Below are positions 2,637-47,345 of a stretch of DNA of 64,000 bases, piece after piece (the stretch's first letter is position 1; every line of letters begins with the position of its first letter). The position numbers and the translations under genes were made by a program. The notes below the pieces were generated by a model. It searched no databases and was not told the origin of the DNA. It saw only the letters and a program-made list of their open reading frames with translations. Source of the DNA: Escherichia phage vB_EcoM_JQD51; the sequence record PV204681. One strand, written 5' to 3'.

Positions 2637-2935
2637 TATTTTATTCCTAAGAAAATTTCAAGAATACGAATGTTATGCTCGCGCCGGTCTTTATTAATTT
2701 CAGCAACGTTTTTATTAATTGACGTACTTCTAACGTTTGAAGAAATAAATTTAATCATATGACTTTTGAGTTGTTGCAAATCCAACCCTTTTTCTTTAGC
2801 AGCTTTACGAAGAGCTTTACCTGCTTCATCTAGTGCCTTTGCTGCATCTTTGTCATAATTGCCGAGTGACATTCCACGACAGATATCAATATACTCATCA
2901 GACCGTTTGATGTAATTCTCTAGTAATGTTTTCAT
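2636..2935 (-). CDS. hypothetical protein (99 aa)
   Basis: ORF track; GAGGAAA SD; early promoter immediately upstream. Confidence 0.5.
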
Positions 2936-2963
2936 TTAGATTTCCTCAATTATCCATAGGAGC

Positions 2964-2993
2964 ATTATACTCTGCTCCTGAGAGTTTGTAAAC
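2964..2993 (-). promoter_or_regulatory. early promoter (GTTTAC / TATAAT) within inverted repeat
   Basis: Plus strand attata -N18- gtaaac; -10 sits in IR ggagca...tgctcc; upstream of ORF 2636..2935. Confidence 0.45.
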
Positions 2994-3217
2994 TATTTTA
3001 CTAAAGATTCAATATACTCGTGAAGAGCTTTAGTCGCTACTGCCCACTTATTCTGATATTCATTTTTCAGATTAGCACGAGACTGAACTAACAATCGGTC
3101 ATTAGTCGGAGGCAAAGATTCTAATCGTTGAATCTGGCGCCCATAAATCATAGCCGCCATTTCAGATTCATAGATAAGCCCTTTAATGTATTCATGTTGT
3201 TCTTTAGTCATTGGCAT
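2993..3217 (-). CDS. hypothetical protein (74 aa), pseT.1 position
   Basis: ORF track; GAGGA SD. Confidence 0.5.
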   Translation of the reverse strand: MPMTKEQHEYIKGLIYESEMAAMIYGRQIQRLESLPPTNDRLLVQSRANLKNEYQNKWAVATKALHEYIESLVK

Positions 3218-3498
3218 TTTTCCTCTTTTAAACCACTACGATAATAACATATCATAGTCTTCTGGTCATGTACATATCTTTTTACATCGTTTAACCAGAT
3301 ACGAAATTCTTGAGAGTCTTCAAACGGCATTCCAACCCACGGATTACCATCAATAACCTTTACTTGCCATTTCTGGTTATATTCAACAATAGATTCAGGC
3401 CATGGCGGATGTAAAGTTTCTTTAGGGCTTAAGGGCACATCCTGGGCACATCCAGCCAAAATACTAATAGATAATACAACTGCGGTTAATTTAATCAT
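3208..3498 (-). CDS. outer-membrane spanin (o-spanin lipoprotein), T4 PseT.2 position
   Basis: 96 aa; signal peptide with lipobox ILAGC; ATGA overlap with upstream i-spanin. Confidence 0.7.
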   Translation of the reverse strand: MIKLTAVVLSISILAGCAQDVPLSPKETLHPPWPESIVEYNQKWQVKVIDGNPWVGMPFEDSQEFRIWLNDVKRYVHDQKTMICYYRSGLKEEKCQ

Positions 3499-3851
3499 TC
3501 TGAGAGCTTCCTGAGGTCTTCTGCAAAGGAATCGAAGGACCTGTTGATTTGTTTTTCGACCAATCCTGGTTTACTTGCCACCACGTTCTTCTTCTTCGAA
3601 TCCTTACGGAGCTTTTCATTTTCGGCCTTAAGTTGGTCAACTAAAACACGGTTCTTATAAGTCATTTCTTCGATTGACTGATATTGAACCTTGAAGTCGT
3701 CTAATACTTTAGCATTGTTTTTAGCGGTCTCTTTGACAGAAGCTAATTCAGTATTCAACGAATCAACTTTGTTGTTTAAGACAACTATTGTTACCGTAGA
3801 AACTAGAGCAAAAGCTGCTACTATAGCATAAATCGGATTTACTTTAAGCAT
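3495..3851 (-). CDS. inner-membrane spanin (i-spanin), T4 PseT.3 position
   Basis: 118 aa; N-terminal TM (IYAIVAAFALVSTVTIVVL) followed by charged coiled-coil region; sits directly upstream of the lipoprotein. Confidence 0.7.
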   Translation of the reverse strand: MLKVNPIYAIVAAFALVSTVTIVVLNNKVDSLNTELASVKETAKNNAKVLDDFKVQYQSIEEMTYKNRVLVDQLKAENEKLRKDSKKKNVVASKPGLVEKQINRSFDSFAEDLRKLSE

Positions 3852-7160: not shown

Positions 7161-7213
7161 TATATTTTCTCACTTAGTTTAACTCATCCATGAGTAAATT
7201 ATAATCAAAAGTC

Positions 7214-11644: not shown

Positions 11645-11887
11645 TCAAAACCCCTTTTCAATAAACCATTCAGTGGCTTTATTAGCGTCAAAGAATAACT
11701 CTTCATATGTCTTTTCTTTGTTTTCAAAAACTGTCACACAAACACGTTGACATTCTCCGCAGTATTCTTCTGACATACTCAAAGCGTCAGAAAACATTTC
11801 ATTAAATTCACTTAAATCGGGATTATGCAATGCGTTAAAAATTGCATAATCGAATTCGTCATTCATAAATTCAAATACAAAAATCAT
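11645..11887 (-). CDS. hypothetical protein (80 aa), frd.1 position
   Basis: Track ORF trimmed to internal ATG with GAGGAAA SD. Confidence 0.45.
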   Translation of the reverse strand: MIFVFEFMNDEFDYAIFNALHNPDLSEFNEMFSDALSMSEEYCGECQRVCVTVFENKEKTYEELFFDANKATEWFIEKGF

Positions 11888-11898
11888 ATTATTTTTCC

Positions 11899-12141
11899 TC
11901 AAACAGACTTTTTCACAATTTTCCAATCAGCTTTAAACGATTCAATGTCAGAGTGGTAAATCCAGAATCCTGCACTTTCACCATCTTCATAGAGTGGACA
12001 TCCATCGCATTCATCTTCCCAACCCATATCGCGTAAAAGATGTTCAGCTTTTTCAACAAGTTCAGCGTCTTTACCGACGATGTTGAAGTACCATTTACCT
12101 CTAACTTCAGAATCTTTGATGCTCTGGCGTTGCAATCTCAT
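11899..12141 (-). CDS. hypothetical protein (80 aa), frd.2 position
   Basis: Track ORF start is GTG; trimmed to ATG (MRLQRQ...) with AAGGAG SD. Confidence 0.45.
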   Translation of the reverse strand: MRLQRQSIKDSEVRGKWYFNIVGKDAELVEKAEHLLRDMGWEDECDGCPLYEDGESAGFWIYHSDIESFKADWKIVKKSV

Positions 12142-15986: not shown

Positions 15987-18900
15987 ATGGCCGACATCAA
16001 ACGTAAGTTCAGAGCCGAAGACGGTCTGGACGCCGGTGGCGACAAGATTGTTAACGTAGCATTAGCCGACCGTACAGTAGGTACTGATGGCGTAAACGTT
16101 GACTTCCTGGTACAAGAAAACACCGTTCAAGTATATGATTCTACGCGTGGATATAACAAAGGATTTGTTGTTCTTTATGACAACCGTTTATATCAAGCAA
16201 TAAATGATATCGTGTCTCCTTCCGGGGCATTTAACCTTTTACAATGGCGTGCAGTTCGTACCGATGCACAATGGATAACTGTCGCTTCTGGGACTTATCA
16301 ACTTTCTTCAGGTGAATCGATTTCGGTTAACACTGGTGCCGGCAATGATATGGTTTTCACATTGCCAAATGCGCCGGTTGATGGTGATACTGTTGTTTTG
16401 GCTGATATTGGTGGAAGAACCGGGACAGTTAAAGTACAGATTAACGCGTCTGTGCAGAGTATTTTAAACTTTAGAGGTGAACAAGTTCGTTCAGTTTTAA
16501 TGACGCGACCACGTTCACAACTAGTGTTTGTGTTTAGTAATCGTTTGTGGCAGATGTATATCATTGATTACGGTAAAGAATCAATCACTGTTACACCTGC
16601 GGCACCATATCAAGCACAAGCAAATGATTTTATCGTTCGTCGTTTTACTAGTGCAGCACCAATCAACATTACACTTCCACGTAATGCTAACAATGGTGAT
16701 ATAATCAGCCTAGTCGATTTAGATAAATTAAACCCACTGTATCATACAATTGTTAAAACATTTGATGATACAACGTCTATTGGTGAAGTCGGGACTCATA
16801 TTGCCGAAGGCAGAAATGACTCTGACGCGTTTTTTGTTTTTGATGCTGCAAATAGTTTATGGCGTATATGGGAAGGCGACCAGAAATCGCGTCTTCGTAT
16901 TATCCGCGCGGATTCAAATATTCGTCCAAATGAAGAAGTTCTTATTTTTGGCACAAATAACGCTACAACCGGAACTATTAATCTTACGCTACCTACCGGA
17001 ATTTTGAGTGGTGACACTGTTAAAATTTCAATGAACTACATGCGTAAAGGCCAAACAGTAAAAATTAAAGCTGCCGAAGGTGATACAATTGCTTCTTCTG
17101 TTGCGTTGCTTCAGTTCCCTAAACGTTCTGAATATCCACCTGATGCTCAATGGGTCTCTGTTACTGAACTAGAATTCAATGGCACTACTTCATATGTTCC
17201 TGTATTAGAATTATCGTATATCGAAGACACTGATTCTGACACTCATTATTGGGTTGTGCAACAGAATGTCCCTACGGTAGAACGTGTTGATGCTGGATCT
17301 GATGCTACACGAGCTCGTTTAGGTGTTATTGCTCTTGCTACTCAAGCGCAAGCAAATGTTGATTTAGAGAATACTCCAGCTAAAGAAGTTGCTATTACTC
17401 CTGAAACGTTGGCAAATCGTACAGCAACTGAAGCTCGACGCGGTATCGCCAAAATTGCTACAACAGCGCAAGTTAACCAGAATTCCACAGCGTCATTTGT
17501 GGACGATACTATTGTTACGCCTAAAAAACTAAATGAGCGTACAGCAACTGAAACTCGTCGCGGTCTTGCTGAAATTGCTACTCAGGCTGAAACCGATGCT
17601 GGTCTTGATGACACAACGATTATTACGCCTAAGAAATTACAGGCACGTCAGGGTTCCGAAACACTATCGGGTATAGTTAAATATGTATCGACTACTTCAG
17701 CTATTCCTGCTGAAACTCGTGGTGCCGCAGGCACTAACGTTTATAATAAAACCGTAAATAATTTAACTATTTCTCCTAAAGCCCTTGACCAATATAAAGC
17801 AACGTATACTCAACAAGGTGCAGTAATTTTAGCTATTGATAGTGAAGTAATTGCTGGTCAATCTCAGTCTGGATACTCTCACGCTGTAGTAACTCCTGAA
17901 ACACTACATAAGAAAACTTCTACTGATGGACGTATTGGTTTAATTGAAATTGCTACGCAAGCAGAAACTAATGCTGGGACTGATTATACACGTGCAGTAA
18001 CGCCTAAGACGTTAAATGATAGGAAAGCTACGGAAGGATTATCCGGCATAGCCGAAATTGCTACGCAAGTTGAATTTGATACTGGAACTGATGATACTCG
18101 TATCTCGACTCCACTGAAAATTAAAACTCATTTTGATTCTTCTGACCGTACCAGTGTTAATTCTGATTCCGGACTTATTGAAGAAGGAACCTTGTGGAAC
18201 CATTATACTCTTGATATTTCTAAAGCAAATGAAACACAACGTGGTACACTTCGCGTAGCGACCCAGGCAGAATCTAATGCAGGAACTTTAGATGATGTTC
18301 TTATTACTCCTAAAAAGCTTTTAGGGACTAAGTCCACTGAAACGTCTGAAGGCGTAATTAAGGTTGCTACTCAGGCTGAAACTGTAACAGGAACTTCTGC
18401 TAATACTGCTGTATCTCCTAAGAATTTAAAATGGATTGTGCAGAGTGAACCAACATGGGCTGCTACTACGGTGATAAGAGGTTTTGTTAAAACTTCATCT
18501 GGTTCAATTACATTCGTTGGTAATGATACAGTCGGTTCTACACAGAACTTAGAGCTATACGAGAAAAATAGCTATGCAGTATCACCGTATGAATTAAACC
18601 GTGTATTAGCAAATTACTTGCCATTAAAAGCAAAAGCTGCTGACACGAATTTATTGGATGGTCTAGATTCATCTCAGTTCATTCGTAGGGACATTGCACA
18701 GACGGTTAATGGTTCACTAACCTTAACCCAACAAACTAATCTGAGTGCCCCTCTTGTATCATCTAGTACTGCTACGTTTGGTGGTTCAGTTTCGGCAAAT
18801 AGTACATTAACTATTTCTAATACTGGAACGGCAACTCGTCTTATTTTTGAGAAAGGACCTCAAACTGGAACTAACCCAGCACAGACTATGACTATCAGAG

Positions 18901-19862
18901 TTTGGGGAAATCAGTTTGGTGGCGGTTCAGATACAACACGTTCTACTGTATTTGAAGTTGGTGATGAAACATCTAATCACTTTTATTCTCAACGTAATAA
19001 AGCCGGGAATATAACGTTTAGCATTAACGGTACTGTGATGCCGATAAATGTTAACGCTTCGGGCTCTTTGAACACGAACGGCGTTGCAACATTTGGTAGT
19101 TCAGTTACTGCTAATGGTGAATTCATCAGCAAGTCAGCAAATGCTTTCAGAGCAATTAGTGGTGATTACGGATTCTTTATTCGTAATGATGGTGCTAATG
19201 TCTATTTTATGCTTACTGCATCGGGTGATCAGACTGGTGGTTTTAATGGATTACGTCCTTTAGCTATTAATAATACATCCGGTCAGGTTACAATTGGCGA
19301 AGGATTAATTATTGCTAAAGGTGCTACTATAAATTCAGGTGGTTTAACTGTTAACTCGAGAATTCGTTCTCAGGGCACTAAAACATCTGATTTATATACC
19401 CGTGCGCCAACATCTGATACGGTAGGATTCTGGTCAATTGACATTAATGATTCAGCTACTTATAACCAGTTCCCGGGTTATTTTAAAATGGTTGAAAAAA
19501 CTAATGAAGTGACTGGGCTTCCATACTTAGAACGTGGCGAAGAAGTTAAATCTCCTGGTACTTTGACTCAGTTTGGTAATACGCTTGATTCTCTTTACCA
19601 AGATTGGATTACTTATCCAACAACTCCAGAAGCACGTACAACTCGTTGGACACGCACATGGCAGAAAACTAAAAATTCTTGGTCAAGTTTTGTTCAGGTA
19701 TTTGATGGTGGAAACCCTCCTCAACCTTCTGATATTGGCGCTTTACCTTCTGATAATGCAACAATCGGAAACTTGACAATAAGAGATTTCTTAAGGATTG
19801 GTAACGTCCGCATTATTCCAGACCCTGTGAATAAATCTGTTAAATTCGAGTGGATTGAATAA
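15987..19862 (+). CDS. 34: long tail fibre proximal subunit gp34
   Basis: 1291 aa; internal repeats of ~20-aa motif (R/G)G(I/L)A(E/K)IATQAETxxG; late promoter and AAGGAA SD upstream. Confidence 0.95.
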   Translation: MADIKRKFRAEDGLDAGGDKIVNVALADRTVGTDGVNVDFLVQENTVQVYDSTRGYNKGFVVLYDNRLYQAINDIVSPSGAFNLLQWRAVRTDAQWITVASGTYQLSSGESISVNTGAGNDMVFTLPNAPVDGDTVVLADIGGRTGTVKVQINASVQSILNFRGEQVRSVLMTRPRSQLVFVFSNRLWQMYIIDYGKESITVTPAAPYQAQANDFIVRRFTSAAPINITLPRNANNGDIISLVDLDKLNPLYHTIVKTFDDTTSIGEVGTHIAEGRNDSDAFFVFDAANSLWRIWEGDQKSRLRIIRADSNIRPNEEVLIFGTNNATTGTINLTLPTGILSGDTVKISMNYMRKGQTVKIKAAEGDTIASSVALLQFPKRSEYPPDAQWVSVTELEFNGTTSYVPVLELSYIEDTDSDTHYWVVQQNVPTVERVDAGSDATRARLGVIALATQAQANVDLENTPAKEVAITPETLANRTATEARRGIAKIATTAQVNQNSTASFVDDTIVTPKKLNERTATETRRGLAEIATQAETDAGLDDTTIITPKKLQARQGSETLSGIVKYVSTTSAIPAETRGAAGTNVYNKTVNNLTISPKALDQYKATYTQQGAVILAIDSEVIAGQSQSGYSHAVVTPETLHKKTSTDGRIGLIEIATQAETNAGTDYTRAVTPKTLNDRKATEGLSGIAEIATQVEFDTGTDDTRISTPLKIKTHFDSSDRTSVNSDSGLIEEGTLWNHYTLDISKANETQRGTLRVATQAESNAGTLDDVLITPKKLLGTKSTETSEGVIKVATQAETVTGTSANTAVSPKNLKWIVQSEPTWAATTVIRGFVKTSSGSITFVGNDTVGSTQNLELYEKNSYAVSPYELNRVLANYLPLKAKAADTNLLDGLDSSQFIRRDIAQTVNGSLTLTQQTNLSAPLVSSSTATFGGSVSANSTLTISNTGTATRLIFEKGPQTGTNPAQTMTIRVWGNQFGGGSDTTRSTVFEVGDETSNHFYSQRNKAGNITFSINGTVMPINVNASGSLNTNGVATFGSSVTANGEFISKSANAFRAISGDYGFFIRNDGANVYFMLTASGDQTGGFNGLRPLAINNTSGQVTIGEGLIIAKGATINSGGLTVNSRIRSQGTKTSDLYTRAPTSDTVGFWSIDINDSATYNQFPGYFKMVEKTNEVTGLPYLERGEEVKSPGTLTQFGNTLDSLYQDWITYPTTPEARTTRWTRTWQKTKNSWSSFVQVFDGGNPPQPSDIGALPSDNATIGNLTIRDFLRIGNVRIIPDPVNKSVKFEWIE

Positions 19863-26168: not shown

Positions 26169-26441
26169 TTAGTTGTTAGAATACATCGCTAAATGACGAT
26201 AAATATTTTCAAAACCTTCGTTGAATTCACTAATCAGTGTTTTCTTTTCTTCGGCAGTTAAATTTGTAATTAGTTTTCTGAACGAATTCTGATTTAGCTG
26301 CCGACCATCTTTTTTAATTCCAATCTCATTCAAGAATCCGATGAAACTTGCTCGGTCTTCAACAATATCTTCCCTAGAGAATTTAATCAAAATAGAAGCA
26401 ATAGTAATAATTTCACGTACGATTTCAATGTCTTTATTCAT
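26169..26441 (-). CDS. asiA: AsiA anti-sigma70 factor
   Basis: 90 aa; MNKDIEIVREIITIASILIKFSREDIVE... near-identical to remembered T4 AsiA; early promoter upstream. Confidence 0.9.
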   Translation of the reverse strand: MNKDIEIVREIITIASILIKFSREDIVEDRASFIGFLNEIGIKKDGRQLNQNSFRKLITNLTAEEKKTLISEFNEGFENIYRHLAMYSNN

Positions 26442-28317: not shown

Positions 28318-28950
28318 TCACAGTACGTTAGTTACAAGGGTAATGATTTCTTTGGACACATTAGGGAAGTCAATGTAAGTATATTTACCACCGATCTTAA
28401 TCTTAACATCGTTTTCAAGAGAAGTAAACAGTTTTGATTCAGTTTCTGACATGTTGTATGCAAATATTCTAAGACAACCATCTCGACGAATTTCGATCTG
28501 ACGAATACCTAGAACTCGTTTTGCAAATCGAACTTCCAAGTTACTACGGTTTTCACCAATTTCTTTAACTTCAACTTTGTCTTTAATATTTTCAAAAACA
28601 AAGTTTGCTAATTCATGCATTTCAGGAGTAACTCCACGTGCTTTTCTAGTGTTACGTTTCTGAAGAAGTTCTGGAGCATTTTCTTGGGCAAAGAGGTCTG
28701 CAGCTTTTTGGATAATATCCATTGCTTCGCCTGTTGCTATAAGTCCATCACCAGATTTTTCGACTAAACCTTTCTTAATCAATACACCAATGTTAGAGTT
28801 AACAACCGATGCATTGTATTCCGCTTCCAGAGCTTCACGGACATTGGCAGCAGTGGTGAAGTTGTTCTTAATGATATAAACCATTATTGCAGCAGTTTTT
28901 TCATTCAGAGCATTTTCAGAAGCTTTGATGATGTAAGTAACTTTAGACAT
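28318..28950 (-). CDS. motA: MotA middle-transcription activator
   Basis: 210 aa; MSKVTYIIKAS...VVNSNIGVLIKKGLVEKSGDGLI as remembered for T4 MotA; early promoter upstream. Confidence 0.9.
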   Translation of the reverse strand: MSKVTYIIKASENALNEKTAAIMVYIIKNNFTTAANVREALEAEYNASVVNSNIGVLIKKGLVEKSGDGLIATGEAMDIIQKAADLFAQENAPELLQKRNTRKARGVTPEMHELANFVFENIKDKVEVKEIGENRSNLEVRFAKRVLGIRQIEIRRDGCLRIFAYNMSETESKLFTSLENDVKIKIGGKYTYIDFPNVSKEIITLVTNVL

Positions 28951-43516: not shown

Positions 43517-44830
43517 TCAAATAAAATGGACGTCAAACCGACCACGAGTTGTGCCAACATACAATAACTGTTTAGCTAATTCTGAATCGGCATAATGGAT
43601 ACACGGTGTATAAACAAAGGCCGTGTCAACAGACATACCCTGGGCCTTATGGAAGGTCGATACTGGTAGTGCCTTCACCTTAGTGAACATACGTTTAGCA
43701 TCCCAGAATTCGCTCCATGGAGCTTTACCACCTTTATTCCAAAATTTGTATGTTTCTGCGGTCTTAGCCAAAAACAAATTGAATTTATAAAGCTCTTCTT
43801 CAGAAGAAATAACCTTTATATCTTCGCGGATGTATTCTTCATCATCCCCATACGTTTCTACTGTAAGATTCCAGTATCGTATCATATATTCGCCTGAAAC
43901 ACCACGTGCTTTAACGAATGTAGACGTTTCTACAGCATCTCGAATACGAACGAATTGACCGTTATTGAAAAGCATTTCGGTCATATTTTTACCATCTAGC
44001 TTATATGTCTTAGTAAACGGCTCTTGTAGAACAATGACTTCGTCTTTAATAAATGGTTTTTCTGTTTCAAGAAGTTTTCGGCGAATAATTGAATTTAACT
44101 TGTCCACCGACTTATTTGTGAATGCCATCATTCGATTTTCGAAAAGGTCTTCAGGAGTTTTAACGACGTTAAAATAGTTCATCATATACGATTTAAGGTC
44201 TGTATATCCGTGAACACCGTGCCCATCAACTACTTTATCGTAAATCCATTTGCCGTTACGAATATCAGTCGCAACATCAATAATTGGTGCATTGCTACGT
44301 TTAACTTCTGTAAGGTTGCATTGCACGAAGTCTTTGTGAGTGAAGAAAGGACTTAGATATGCAGTTGATTCGCCTGGGTCTACCGGACGAATCTGGCATC
44401 GGTCGCCGATTCCAATTACTGTACACCATTTAGGGATACTAGCTAACATTATTTTAAACAGAGAACGGTCGCACATTGACGCTTCATCAAATAACAGTAC
44501 ACGGCACAAGGCTAAGTCTGGAACCTTTTTCTGTTCAAACAATACGTTTTCTTCGTATGTAGTTGGGTTGATTTTAAGAATGCTATGAATAGTCGATGCT
44601 TCTTGACCCGCAAGTTTGCTTAGAACCTTTTTAGCAGCATGTGTAGGGGCTGCTAAAATAATACCTGATTCTCCAGAAGAAATAAGGGCTTCAACGATGA
44701 ATCTAGTAAGGGTTGTTTTACCTGTACCGGCAGGCCCATTAATAGTTACGTGATGTTTCTTTTCTTTAATAGCGTTCATAACAACGTTGAAGGCGTTTTT
44801 CTGGCCTTCAGTCAAATCATCAAATGTCAT
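43517..44830 (-). CDS. dda: Dda SF1 DNA helicase
   Basis: 437 aa; Walker A GPAGTGKTT; N-terminus MTFDDLTEGQKNAFNVV. Confidence 0.9.
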   Translation of the reverse strand: MTFDDLTEGQKNAFNVVMNAIKEKKHHVTINGPAGTGKTTLTRFIVEALISSGESGIILAAPTHAAKKVLSKLAGQEASTIHSILKINPTTYEENVLFEQKKVPDLALCRVLLFDEASMCDRSLFKIMLASIPKWCTVIGIGDRCQIRPVDPGESTAYLSPFFTHKDFVQCNLTEVKRSNAPIIDVATDIRNGKWIYDKVVDGHGVHGYTDLKSYMMNYFNVVKTPEDLFENRMMAFTNKSVDKLNSIIRRKLLETEKPFIKDEVIVLQEPFTKTYKLDGKNMTEMLFNNGQFVRIRDAVETSTFVKARGVSGEYMIRYWNLTVETYGDDEEYIREDIKVISSEEELYKFNLFLAKTAETYKFWNKGGKAPWSEFWDAKRMFTKVKALPVSTFHKAQGMSVDTAFVYTPCIHYADSELAKQLLYVGTTRGRFDVHFI

Positions 44831-45138
44831 CGTAAAGTCCCTGCAATTGGAATACTAACAATACGGCCTGTATCCAGGATTCGTTGATACAATTTTTGCG
44901 TCTCCGCATCTAGTTTAACGTGTTTCATTTCAAGCTTATTAAACCAGAACTTACGCGGAGTTTCGACCATTCTTAGAACTCCCATTTTTAAATCTGTTTT
45001 ATACTGTGTTTTCAGAGTATCGAAAACTTTATCTGCAATATCCTTTCTAAAAAATACCGCAGGACGATGCTCGTCAAGTGGAACCGGGACAGTAAATCCT
45101 TCCATATCTCGATAAACTATTGCATATACATAAACCAT
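44827..45138 (-). CDS. hypothetical protein (103 aa), dda.1 position
   Basis: ORF track; ATGA coupling with dda. Confidence 0.5.
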   Translation of the reverse strand: MVYVYAIVYRDMEGFTVPVPLDEHRPAVFFRKDIADKVFDTLKTQYKTDLKMGVLRMVETPRKFWFNKLEMKHVKLDAETQKLYQRILDTGRIVSIPIAGTLR

Positions 45139-45140
45139 AA

Positions 45141-45887
45141 TTAACCTTTAATCAGTTGGAATAATGATGCACTAAGTGGTAAGCCACGTTTCAATTTTAA
45201 TTTACCAATGAAACCAATCTTTTCAAAACGTTGCAGACCTTGGATAACTTTATCATATGTATCGAAAAGCGATTCAGCGTCAGTTAATTTAGTTTTAGTT
45301 TTCCAGTCAGAGCCTTTAAGAAGAACGTTGAGTTTAGTAAGTTCATGGCCTTCTGCTTGATGTGAGCCATTAATGCGTGCTTTCAAAGCAACAATTCTAA
45401 GTTTAGATTCGTTAGATAAAGGTTGATTTTTCATCATGTTCGCCATATGCTTAACACGGTTTTCACGTTTTGCTCGGATTTTTAAAATAGTACCATAAAC
45501 CTTTTTAATTTGGGCCCATTTCTTCTCGTCGAGATTAAGTTTCTCTACTTTACGGGCAGAAGGATTAGCGATACGTCTTGCAACAGCGTCACGTTTCTCA
45601 ATAAGTTCTTCTAATGTTAAATAAGAACGAGCCGTGTTATATTTTTTCTTAACTGGGATAACATTACCTTTAATGTAGCCTATATCATTATTAAAACGTT
45701 CTAAGGATAATTTCTCACCTTCAACAGAGTTATTGAAAGATTCACCTGAGTAAGCGCAGATCTTTTGATCAAGAATGTTTTTAAGGTAATTAAAGTCTAA
45801 GTTAAAATCCTTAGAGCGTCTCTTCGCAGAAGCTCTAGTGTGGTCAAGACGACGATTGATTTTGTTAATTTTATTATTTGATAACAT
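45141..45887 (-). CDS. srd: Srd-like basic protein
   Basis: 248 aa, lysine/arginine-rich; position between dda and modA; GAGGAAA SD. Confidence 0.6.
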   Translation of the reverse strand: MLSNNKINKINRRLDHTRASAKRRSKDFNLDFNYLKNILDQKICAYSGESFNNSVEGEKLSLERFNNDIGYIKGNVIPVKKKYNTARSYLTLEELIEKRDAVARRIANPSARKVEKLNLDEKKWAQIKKVYGTILKIRAKRENRVKHMANMMKNQPLSNESKLRIVALKARINGSHQAEGHELTKLNVLLKGSDWKTKTKLTDAESLFDTYDKVIQGLQRFEKIGFIGKLKLKRGLPLSASLFQLIKG

Positions 45888-45978
45888 AATATTTTCCTCT
45901 GTCTTACGGACGTTAGGTCATTTAGCTGATAAGCTTATAATATCATGCCCTCAGGTAGTGTACACTCTTTTTTCATAA

Positions 45979-46006
45979 AATGCTTTAATTTTTTATGTGT
46001 TATAAT
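45979..46006 (+). promoter_or_regulatory. middle-promoter-like element on plus strand, antisense to modA
   Basis: AATGCTTTA, 13 nt spacer, TATAAT on the plus strand; no credible plus-strand gene downstream. Confidence 0.4.
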
Positions 46007-46039
46007 GGTTCTGAGTTCCATCCGGTTATTCCAATTCAG

Positions 46040-46648
46040 TCAGTAACTGACAATAGACAGATTCCAGATTGTATAACGTCCATCTTGAATAATAGAATCT
46101 ACACGCAGTGTAGTCCCTATAGGGAGCATAAATTCACATTCGTCAGATATAAGTCTAGCATTAGACCGTCTTGTCGCTTCAGGGAAAGCTCCATTGAACT
46201 CACAAGATGGCGCAGCCAGAATCATGTTAAGCATATGTTCACGGAAGTTGAAAGCAAATGGTGCATCTTTGATGCAGAACATATTAAATGTTCCGTAAAA
46301 ATTATACGAAGCAAAGTTACGTGCTACACCGAACACTGGGCTGAAGCTCATTACTCTGTCAAATTTAATAATACTACCAATACCTTTATCATCGAGTGTG
46401 GCCATAGTTTTCTTAGAGATTCCACGATACATTGTCTCAGGAACAGAAGACGTCCAATTTCTACGAACGATTGAACTTAACTCCTGTTGAATACAGTCTG
46501 GCTTGTTTTCCATACACTGCCACAGTACACTTTGTTCAATGTCGCTGAATTGACTATCAATTTCGTACTGCAATACATCTTGATATTCGGGGTTTTGAGC
46601 ACGACGAACCATTTCTTCAATTTCACACTCGTTATACGGCATAAACAT
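46040..46648 (-). CDS. modA: ADP-ribosyltransferase ModA
   Basis: 202 aa; ART R-S-E triad candidates (MYRG, SFSP, ECEFMLP); GAGGAGA SD. Confidence 0.7.
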   Translation of the reverse strand: MFMPYNECEIEEMVRRAQNPEYQDVLQYEIDSQFSDIEQSVLWQCMENKPDCIQQELSSIVRRNWTSSVPETMYRGISKKTMATLDDKGIGSIIKFDRVMSFSPVFGVARNFASYNFYGTFNMFCIKDAPFAFNFREHMLNMILAAPSCEFNGAFPEATRRSNARLISDECEFMLPIGTTLRVDSIIQDGRYTIWNLSIVSY

Positions 46649-46678
46649 TTAGGTTTCTCCTCACGTTTCGATAAAGTA

Positions 46679-46708
46679 ATCATAACACCGTCTGTGGTGG
46701 TTGTAAAC
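46679..46708 (-). promoter_or_regulatory. early promoter for modA
   Basis: Plus strand atcata -N18- gtaaac. Confidence 0.45.
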
Positions 46709-47289
46709 TAAAAATTCAACATCTTTAAGTGAATGATTTTGTATACTCGAGACAAAGGGTCATACTCTAACTCTTCGATTTCCACAATCTCAAATCTAGA
46801 GATACTTGAAACCATGTACTCTTGTTCAGATTCAATCATATCTAGGACATCAACACGTGTTTCTTCCATAACATGCTTAGGGTTCTTTCCGGCGAGTACA
46901 ATATTAACCATGTTTTGGTAGTAATCAAAAATGAATGGAGCATTCCTGAGACTAAGAATAGTGTACGTCTGATATTCCCATCTCCCAGAGAATTGACGAG
47001 CTGTACTGAAATCAGTTGTGAACGATGTTACTCGTCCAGGAGACCAATGGCATCCAACAGAAAGAAGGGAAAGACGTTCTACTTCTTCTGGAGTTACACC
47101 ACGGTAGAGTTCTACTGGTACTGTAGAAGTCATATGCTTACGAACAAGATGGTCTAATTCATAGTGGAAATCCGGGTCTTCCTTAGAATCGGTGCAAGCC
47201 CAGAGAATGTTTTGTTCTTGGTGGGTGAATTTGCTATCAATCAGATTTGTTAGGTATTCACGTTCTTGAAGTTCAGATTGACATGTCAT
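46708..47289 (-). CDS. modB: ADP-ribosyltransferase ModB
   Basis: 193 aa; paralogous to modA (LYRG, STS-like, ESEQEYMV); GGAGG SD. Confidence 0.7.
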   Translation of the reverse strand: MTCQSELQEREYLTNLIDSKFTHQEQNILWACTDSKEDPDFHYELDHLVRKHMTSTVPVELYRGVTPEEVERLSLLSVGCHWSPGRVTSFTTDFSTARQFSGRWEYQTYTILSLRNAPFIFDYYQNMVNIVLAGKNPKHVMEETRVDVLDMIESEQEYMVSSISRFEIVEIEELEYDPLSRVYKIIHLKMLNF

Positions 47290-47316: not shown

Positions 47317-47345
47317 ATCATAACACGAGAGGAGGGAATGTAAAC
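47317..47345 (-). promoter_or_regulatory. early promoter for modB
   Basis: Plus strand atcata -N17- gtaaac. Confidence 0.45.

Follow-up and report, generated by a model that had tools for sequence, protein, structure and literature searches.

The 64,000-nt stretch of Escherichia phage vB_EcoM_JQD51 analysed here (PV204681; referred to as the window) belongs to an RB69/HX01-like Mosigvirus, the window region being 99.3% identical to Escherichia phage HX01. Every gene around the promoter element described below sits on the minus strand: dda (43517–44830), dda.1 (44827–45138), srd (45141–45887, a PHROG match confirming Srd) and the two ADP-ribosyltransferase genes modA (46040–46648; PHROG 832, E=1.5e-37; the equivalent RB69 gene is annotated modA) and modB (46708–47289; PHROG 832, E=1.2e-38; RB69 annotation). 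The element is housed in the 152-bp gap between srd and modA. A promoter scan found one T4-early-type promoter each (TTTACA or TGTACA, 16–17 nt, TATGAT or TATTAT, with TG) for modB (TTTACA-16-TATGAT, 47317–47344), modA (TTTACA-17-TATGAT, 46679–46707) and srd (TGTACA-16-TATTAT, 45937–45964), all on the minus strand. The modA and modB promoters are convergent with the element, while the srd promoter is back-to-back with it, and the A/T tract upstream of the window srd early promoter overlaps the MotA box of the element. No terminators were found between modB, modA and srd on the minus strand of the window. The trans-activator that the element would need is encoded by motA (28318–28950, minus strand; Pfam MotA_activ 1.1e-39, MotCF 3.2e-8) and the co-activator by an asiA homologue (26175–26441, minus strand; tblastn with T4 AsiA, 73% identity, E=3e-42).

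The initial annotation had described a MotA box, a 13-nt spacer and TATAAT on the plus strand of this gap, and direct reading of the sequence confirmed all three parts. The MotA box AAATGCTTTA occupies 45978–45987 (approximately −35 to −26; core form AATGCTTTA at 45979–45987), the 13-nt spacer attttttatgTGT occupies 45988–46000, its last three bases, TGT, forming an extended −10 (TGn), and the −10 hexamer TATAAT lies at 46001–46006. Immediately downstream is a start-site block, GGTTCT-G-AGTTCCATCC (46007–46023, predicted start G46013), common to the T4 promoters PuvsY, PnrdC.7 and P34i and to the T4 srd-modA copy of the element. With its box centred near −30 and its extended −10, the element fully matches the published middle-promoter consensus ((a/t)(a/t)(a/t)TGCTTtA, 12 ± 1 bp, TAtaaT; PMC2988021). 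A sigma-70 −35 at 16–18 bp from the −10 was looked for by reading, with 0–1 of 6 matches to TTGACA, and the promoter scan called no plus-strand sigma-70 promoter at the element. The exact box-spacer-TATAAT pattern occurs once in the window, and the pattern with up to 2 mismatches has 4 matches against 0.67 expected. For a strict consensus ([AT][AT]TGCTT[TC]A-N11-13-TA[TA]AAT), 300 dinucleotide-preserving shuffles gave an expectation of 0.017 per strand per 64 kb, in agreement with the earlier estimate that a chance match is improbable; one match was observed on the plus strand and two on the minus strand, and the element is the best consensus match on either strand of the window.

Conservation weighs most in favour of a real promoter. 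The T4 copy of the element (AAATGCTTTA, 12 nt, TATAAT; 11864–11890, plus strand) lies between srd and modA, in the same place and orientation as in the window. Antisense elements are also present in representatives of Gaprivervirus, Dhakavirus, Karamvirus, Marfavirus, Jiaodavirus, Moonvirus and Kanagawavirus, and lie behind a mod-like gene in T4, VR26, AnYang, fGh-Ecl01, MY02, JD18, CF1 and PEi26. Among 48 IMG/VR loci encoding a Srd relative, 41 have exactly one antisense nGCTTnn-N12/13-TATAAT upstream of srd. Mean pairwise identity across 16 lineage representatives is 100% for the −10 hexamer, 74% for the MotA box (with TGCTT in 15–16/16), 61% for the 10 nt after the −10, 32% for the spacer (always 12 or 13 nt) and 35–40% for the flanks. 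TATAAT is invariant in all 37 unique homologous elements (37/37), and variants within lineages are confined to the spacer and flanks, sparing the box, the −10 and the start block. Judged from these alignments, the conservation pattern is that of a promoter footprint and not that of RNA structure or coding sequence. The locus search pattern itself demanded GCTT and TATAAT, but no mod-srd syntenic locus in the MotA-bearing lineages failed it, so selection by the pattern does not account for the invariance. The cross-lineage conservation excludes a chance match, and retention of the element in at least 10 genera while the flanks and ModA diverged shows, on comparative grounds, that it is under selection. 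The ModA of the window is only ~28% identical to T4 ModA (2909–3511 of T4 contig L001), and the promoter just behind modA is far better conserved between the window and T4 than is the ModA protein.

The distribution of the element follows that of MotA and of mod. The Krischvirus (RB49-like) loci (L010, L052–L054) keep the mod-srd order, but their gap holds just an early-type promoter and no element; RB49 is without motA or a middle-promoter consensus (Nolan et al., PMC1524935). A pattern-limited scan detected MotA on 22 contigs that have the element and on 0/7 that lack it. A gene for a Mod-like ADP-ribosyltransferase lies directly downstream of the antisense start in every element-bearing locus, and loci without a Mod-like gene in that place lack the element. 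In Marfavirus, where dmd separates mod from srd, the element stays beside mod. The geometry of the element relative to mod is conserved, whereas its geometry relative to the srd early promoter is not. The two promoters are back-to-back in Mosig-, Tequatro-, Gapriver-, Dhaka- and Kanagawavirus (class I), the MotA box abutting the −35/UP region of the srd early promoter; in Karam-/Moon-type phages (class II: Karam, Moon and relatives) they face each other, their starts roughly coinciding and their −10 elements 13 bp apart; and in Jiaodavirus, Marfavirus and L057-type phages no recognisable srd early promoter was found beside the element.

The start-site block (consensus TATAAT-GGTTCT-G/A-AGTYCC) links the element to the mapped T4 promoters PuvsY (oriF), P34i (oriG) and PnrdC.7. 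Read from the −10, the sequences are TATAAT ggttctGagttccatcc for the window element, TATAAT gaatctAagtccttcc for T4 srd-modA (plus strand), TATAAT gaatctAagtccatcc for PuvsY, TATAAT ggttctAagccctttt for PnrdC.7 and TATAAT ggtcccAgagagttcc for P34i, with 15/16 nt after the −10 identical between T4 srd-modA and PuvsY. The published starts of PuvsY, PnrdC.7 and P34i are the A lying 7 nt after TATAAT, and the equivalent bases are therefore the predicted starts in the window (G46013) and in T4 (A11897); the start previously proposed near 46014 is thereby moved to G46013. An HMM built from uvsY promoters only, taken from many genera, gave its two best matches in 114 kb to the T4 element (E=1.4e-4) and the window element (E=2.5e-4), the next match being at ≥0.15. 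Conversely, an HMM of the srd-mod element, built without the T4-like and Mosigvirus-like loci drawn from IMG/VR, returned five sites at E<1e-3 in the whole T4 genome, namely srd-modA, PuvsY, P34i, PnrdC.7 and a plus-strand site between genes 3 and 2. Related start blocks are borne by the uvsY and gene 34 promoters of other genera.

The closest resemblance is to PuvsY (ori(uvsY)/oriF), with which the element shares the MotA box, the 12–13 bp spacer, tGG-TATAAT and the start-site block. PuvsY, however, expresses uvsY in the sense direction, while the element points against its neighbours and has no gene to express; PuvsY has proven origin activity, whereas the element is compared with it by sequence alone. 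P34i (ori(34)/oriG) is likewise a non-coding MotA-type promoter that opposes a gene, with a position kept across genera and a related start block, but it opposes a late gene from inside the coding sequence, whereas the element is intergenic and opposes early genes, and the match of the element to P34i (E about 1e-3) is weaker than that to PuvsY. PnrdC.7 (mapped start 53325) belongs to the same subfamily (tGG-TATAAT-GGTTCT-A-AGCCC) but, unlike the element, drives an ordinary mRNA in the sense direction; an origin-specific role for the start block was ruled out on this ground. A general middle-promoter feature was also ruled out, since 28 other mapped T4 middle promoters within the first 50 kb, the oriA promoter P56/69 among them, lack the block. 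T4 PnrdD has only TATAATGAATCTGA in common with the block. The T4 motB early-type promoter (7173–7203, minus strand; TTTACA-17-TATAAT ggtcccgtggag) has the TATAATGGTCCC start in common with P34i, so part of the block also occurs outside middle promoters.

Two further members of this subfamily were recovered. The window has an ori(34) homologue at 18184–18230 (minus strand), antisense inside the gp34 ORF (15987–19862, plus strand), with the structure ATTTGCTTTA-13-TATAAT ggttccacaaggttcc (from the −10, TATAAT ggttccAcaaggttcc), which the srd-mod HMM retrieved at E=1.3e-4; the position of the ori(34) promoter is conserved in Tequatro-, Mosig-, Gapriver-, Dhaka- and Karam-type contigs. The other is a second unlisted MotA-type site in T4, at 75966–76016 (plus strand) between the late genes 3 and 2 (AATGCTTTA-13-TATAAT gggtctAagtcccttccatt, start A76000), 3.4 kb left of oriE and not among the 58 listed T4 middle promoters. 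RB69 has it too, at about 79262–79309 (plus strand), where it corresponds to prediction Pm:79256 of Nolan et al.

The predicted transcript of the srd-modA element is non-coding and antisense to modA and modB (46013–47289, plus strand), and may extend further right. The first gene entered antisense is modA, from its stop-codon end, 27 nt past the predicted start. A promoter for a plus-strand gene was ruled out: all ORFs of ≥110 aa to the right are on the minus strand, antisense ORFs are not conserved, and no plus-strand ORF downstream was conserved in position, length or ribosome-binding site across the 16 lineages. A 159-aa ORF at 45995–46474 was rejected as it begins upstream of the predicted transcription start and has no PHROG match. 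The promoter is opposite to, and overlaps, the unit that it would target, and the early promoters of modA and modB point towards it. Hallmarks of a cis-antisense RNA (a defined 3' end, conserved structure) were sought in the predicted RNA by terminator, Rfam and fold checks and none were found: there was no convincing intrinsic terminator on the plus strand of the window or of T4, no Rfam match, and a fold z-score of −1.6, indicating no unusual stability. The A+T content of the first 60 nt downstream is 60% in the window and 72% in T4, against 62–70% for known origins and 68 ± 5% for all T4 middle promoters; downstream A+T, purine content and GC skew do not separate known origins from other middle promoters.

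The element has left little trace in the literature. The table of 58 T4 middle promoters of Hinton 2010 lists nothing near 11.9 kb, the element goes unmentioned in the 2010 reviews of T4 transcription, RNA control and replication, and no mapped plus-strand transcript at srd-modA was found in the literature searched. According to a 2024–26 preprint, dRNA-seq of T4 yields 22 antisense TSSs, and the modA_modB primers of an NAD-cap preprint target the sense RNA. The sole earlier trace found is Pm:12081 (plus strand, score 7.9), one of the RB69 predictions tabulated in the supplement of Nolan et al. 2006 (Additional file 4, PMC1524935), an HMM prediction at 12081–12122 (plus strand) between srd and modA that is the same element. 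It is listed there with a low score and no comment, and its orientation, conservation and kinship with origin promoters are not noted; the element is a new, conserved representative of a known class, the T4-type middle promoters, in an unusual orientation. Middle transcription in T4 is textbook material, yet a near-consensus promoter is absent from the 58 that have been mapped, apparently because it points in the 'wrong' direction.

Lambda OOP is a phage cis-antisense RNA. The element resembles it, and also the antisense transcription of T4 gene 32 (Belin et al. 1987, cited in PMC2988021), in having an opposite-strand promoter 3' of its target and a fully complementary RNA. The gene 32 antisense RNA and OOP have mapped ends and measured effects, whereas the element is known from its sequence and comes without a terminator or structure.

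We consider the element very probably an active MotA/AsiA-dependent promoter that makes a non-coding plus-strand RNA. That it is a rightward middle promoter antisense to modA and modB, as the initial annotation proposed, is strongly upheld by the cross-genus conservation of box, spacing, −10 and start together with the near-identity to mapped T4 promoters, and the accompanying suggestion that an antisense RNA controls the two ADP-ribosyltransferases is plausible. The binding site of MotA would be AAATGCTTTA, at about −30, and that of AsiA-remodelled sigma-70 holoenzyme TGT-TATAAT; the RNA would begin at G46013 and run rightward on the plus strand, and transcription would reach the 3' end of modA 27 nt on and continue into modB, in head-on conflict with the early promoters of both genes. 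The element would presumably fire at the early-to-middle switch, where antisense RNA and polymerase collisions could curtail the synthesis of the toxic Mod ADP-ribosyltransferases, which may be needed only early. In some genera the element may, in addition, compete physically with the srd early promoter and keep polymerase off it. This shut-off of mod by antisense RNA or by collision is our tentative lead reading, with a probability of roughly 0.45; it takes literally the consequences that transcription from the element could hardly avoid. It is favoured by the convergence of both mod early promoters on the element, by the antisense-adjacent mod-like gene in every element-bearing locus, including Marfavirus, where the element stays with mod, and by the fact that ModA is highly toxic and made early (PMC2988021). 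On the other hand, the 58 T4 middle promoters identified by experiment do not include the element, the checks for a terminator, a stable structure or any other mark of a dedicated antisense RNA turned up nothing, and the constant adjacency to mod could merely be inherited gene order. In addition, its closest characterised relatives, PuvsY and P34i, are replication origins, and the gene 3/2 site faces the late genes 2 and 4, where silencing at middle time is less sensible. Tight control of mod may also matter little, as deletion of modA leaves early shut-off unchanged (PMC2988021); the cause of early-gene shut-off was still called unknown in a 2010 review. If the silencing reading is true, the locus represents a timed antisense or collision switch on toxic ADP-ribosyltransferases.

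The kinship with origin promoters raises a different possibility, namely that the element is an origin of the ori(34)/ori(uvsY) type, in which the untranslated transcript would stay as an R-loop and prime rightward leading-strand synthesis, the overlap with mod being incidental; such an element could possibly also create a recombination hot spot. We regard this main rival of the lead reading as less likely, although several observations point to it. The subfamily is small, with the uvsY-promoter HMM ranking the T4 and window elements first and two of the five T4 sites of the srd-mod HMM being PuvsY (oriF) and P34i (oriG). The element is non-coding and opposed to its neighbouring genes, like P34i, for which the T4 record describes the oriG primer RNA as opposite in direction to the adjacent gene 34, and ori(34) is likewise conserved in position across genera. 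The gene 3/2 site is another non-coding plus-strand member of the subfamily, and, speculatively, the toxicity of modA to E. coli could have prevented plasmid origin screens from sampling the region. Membership of the subfamily does not, however, imply origin function, since it includes the ordinary mRNA promoter PnrdC.7, and downstream composition is non-discriminating, with only 60% A+T in the window copy. The origins in the T4 record lie at 16763 (oriA), 79355 (oriE), 115321 (oriF) and 152947 (oriG), none near 11.9 kb, and genome-wide arrays gave five T4 origins (PMC3016281). Identity with oriA was ruled out, as oriA at 16763 uses the gene 56 promoter and no origin is annotated at 9–14.5 kb. 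Origins of the ori(uvsY)/ori(34) type have a middle-mode promoter at their core, which the element resembles by sequence, and an A+T-rich DNA unwinding element in the ~50 bp downstream; their further hallmarks are a persistent R-loop and autonomous replication, in infected cells, of plasmids bearing the fragment (PMC3016281). The broader proposal that the srd-mod element and the gene 3/2 site (T4 76.0 kb) are both unrecognised R-loop origins of the ori(34) type, conserved across MotA-encoding T4-like phages, is unlikely. Were it true, the middle-mode origins of T4 would form a sequence-defined family (tGG-TATAAT-GrwTCT-A-AGTCC), and the broad 'oriA' and 'oriE' zones of the arrays might partly reflect rightward primers starting 3–5 kb leftward; if the origin reading holds for the srd-mod element, one more origin like oriF and oriG would have been found.

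Two other explanations place the function outside the plus-strand RNA, and both appear improbable. One is a polymerase-occupancy switch or roadblock, in which MotA/AsiA-RNAP would shut the srd early promoter or block read-through from mod to srd-dda, the RNA itself being irrelevant. The class II arrangement, in which −10 elements facing each other 13 bp apart mean that both open complexes cannot coexist, and the abutment of the class I MotA box on the −35/UP region of the srd promoter are in its favour, but Jiaodavirus, Marfavirus and L057-type phages keep the element with no recognisable srd early promoter beside it, and it is the geometry to mod, not that to the srd promoter, which is conserved. 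Still less probable is that the site works on the sense strand, within the modA-srd mRNA, as a processing site, a small peptide or a leader structure, that it is a MotA decoy, or that it is a chance match, the last being excluded by conservation. HX01 is annotated with a 28-aa ORF across the element (45936–46022, minus strand), and in class II the srd leader carries the complement of the block at its 5' end, where base-pairing with the Shine-Dalgarno sequence would be possible. The ORF was rejected as a candidate because it is not conserved and belongs to no family (9 codons in T4, no ATG in VR26, no PHROG match), and the hypothetical protein in the HX01 RefSeq record is probably an annotation artefact. 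Sense-strand RNA structure accords poorly with the bipartite pattern, with its fixed 12–13 bp gap and free spacer, which is a promoter signature, and with the lack of an Rfam match; class I copies, moreover, lie upstream of the srd transcription start. The decoy, which the initial annotation had offered as an alternative, found no support and a pure MotA decoy is unlikely, as a decoy would need neither an invariant TATAAT at a fixed 12–13 bp nor a conserved start-site block.

Several minor features were observed around the element. The 9-codon ORF of T4 at this position overlaps the modA stop codon as TAATG. The srd early transcript of Moon-/Karam-type phages (L008, L004, about 1420–1480) would begin AAUCCUU, which is complementary to the srd Shine-Dalgarno region AAGGAUU ~40 nt downstream, so that the leader might sequester the Shine-Dalgarno. 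In the window, a CGTCCGTAAGA motif is located at 45902–45912 (minus strand), 10–25 nt upstream of the srd ribosome-binding site, where it may form a small hairpin (GUC-CGUAA-GAC). T4, VR26 and AnYang also have this conserved motif, and in JD18 it makes up the spacer of the antisense promoter.
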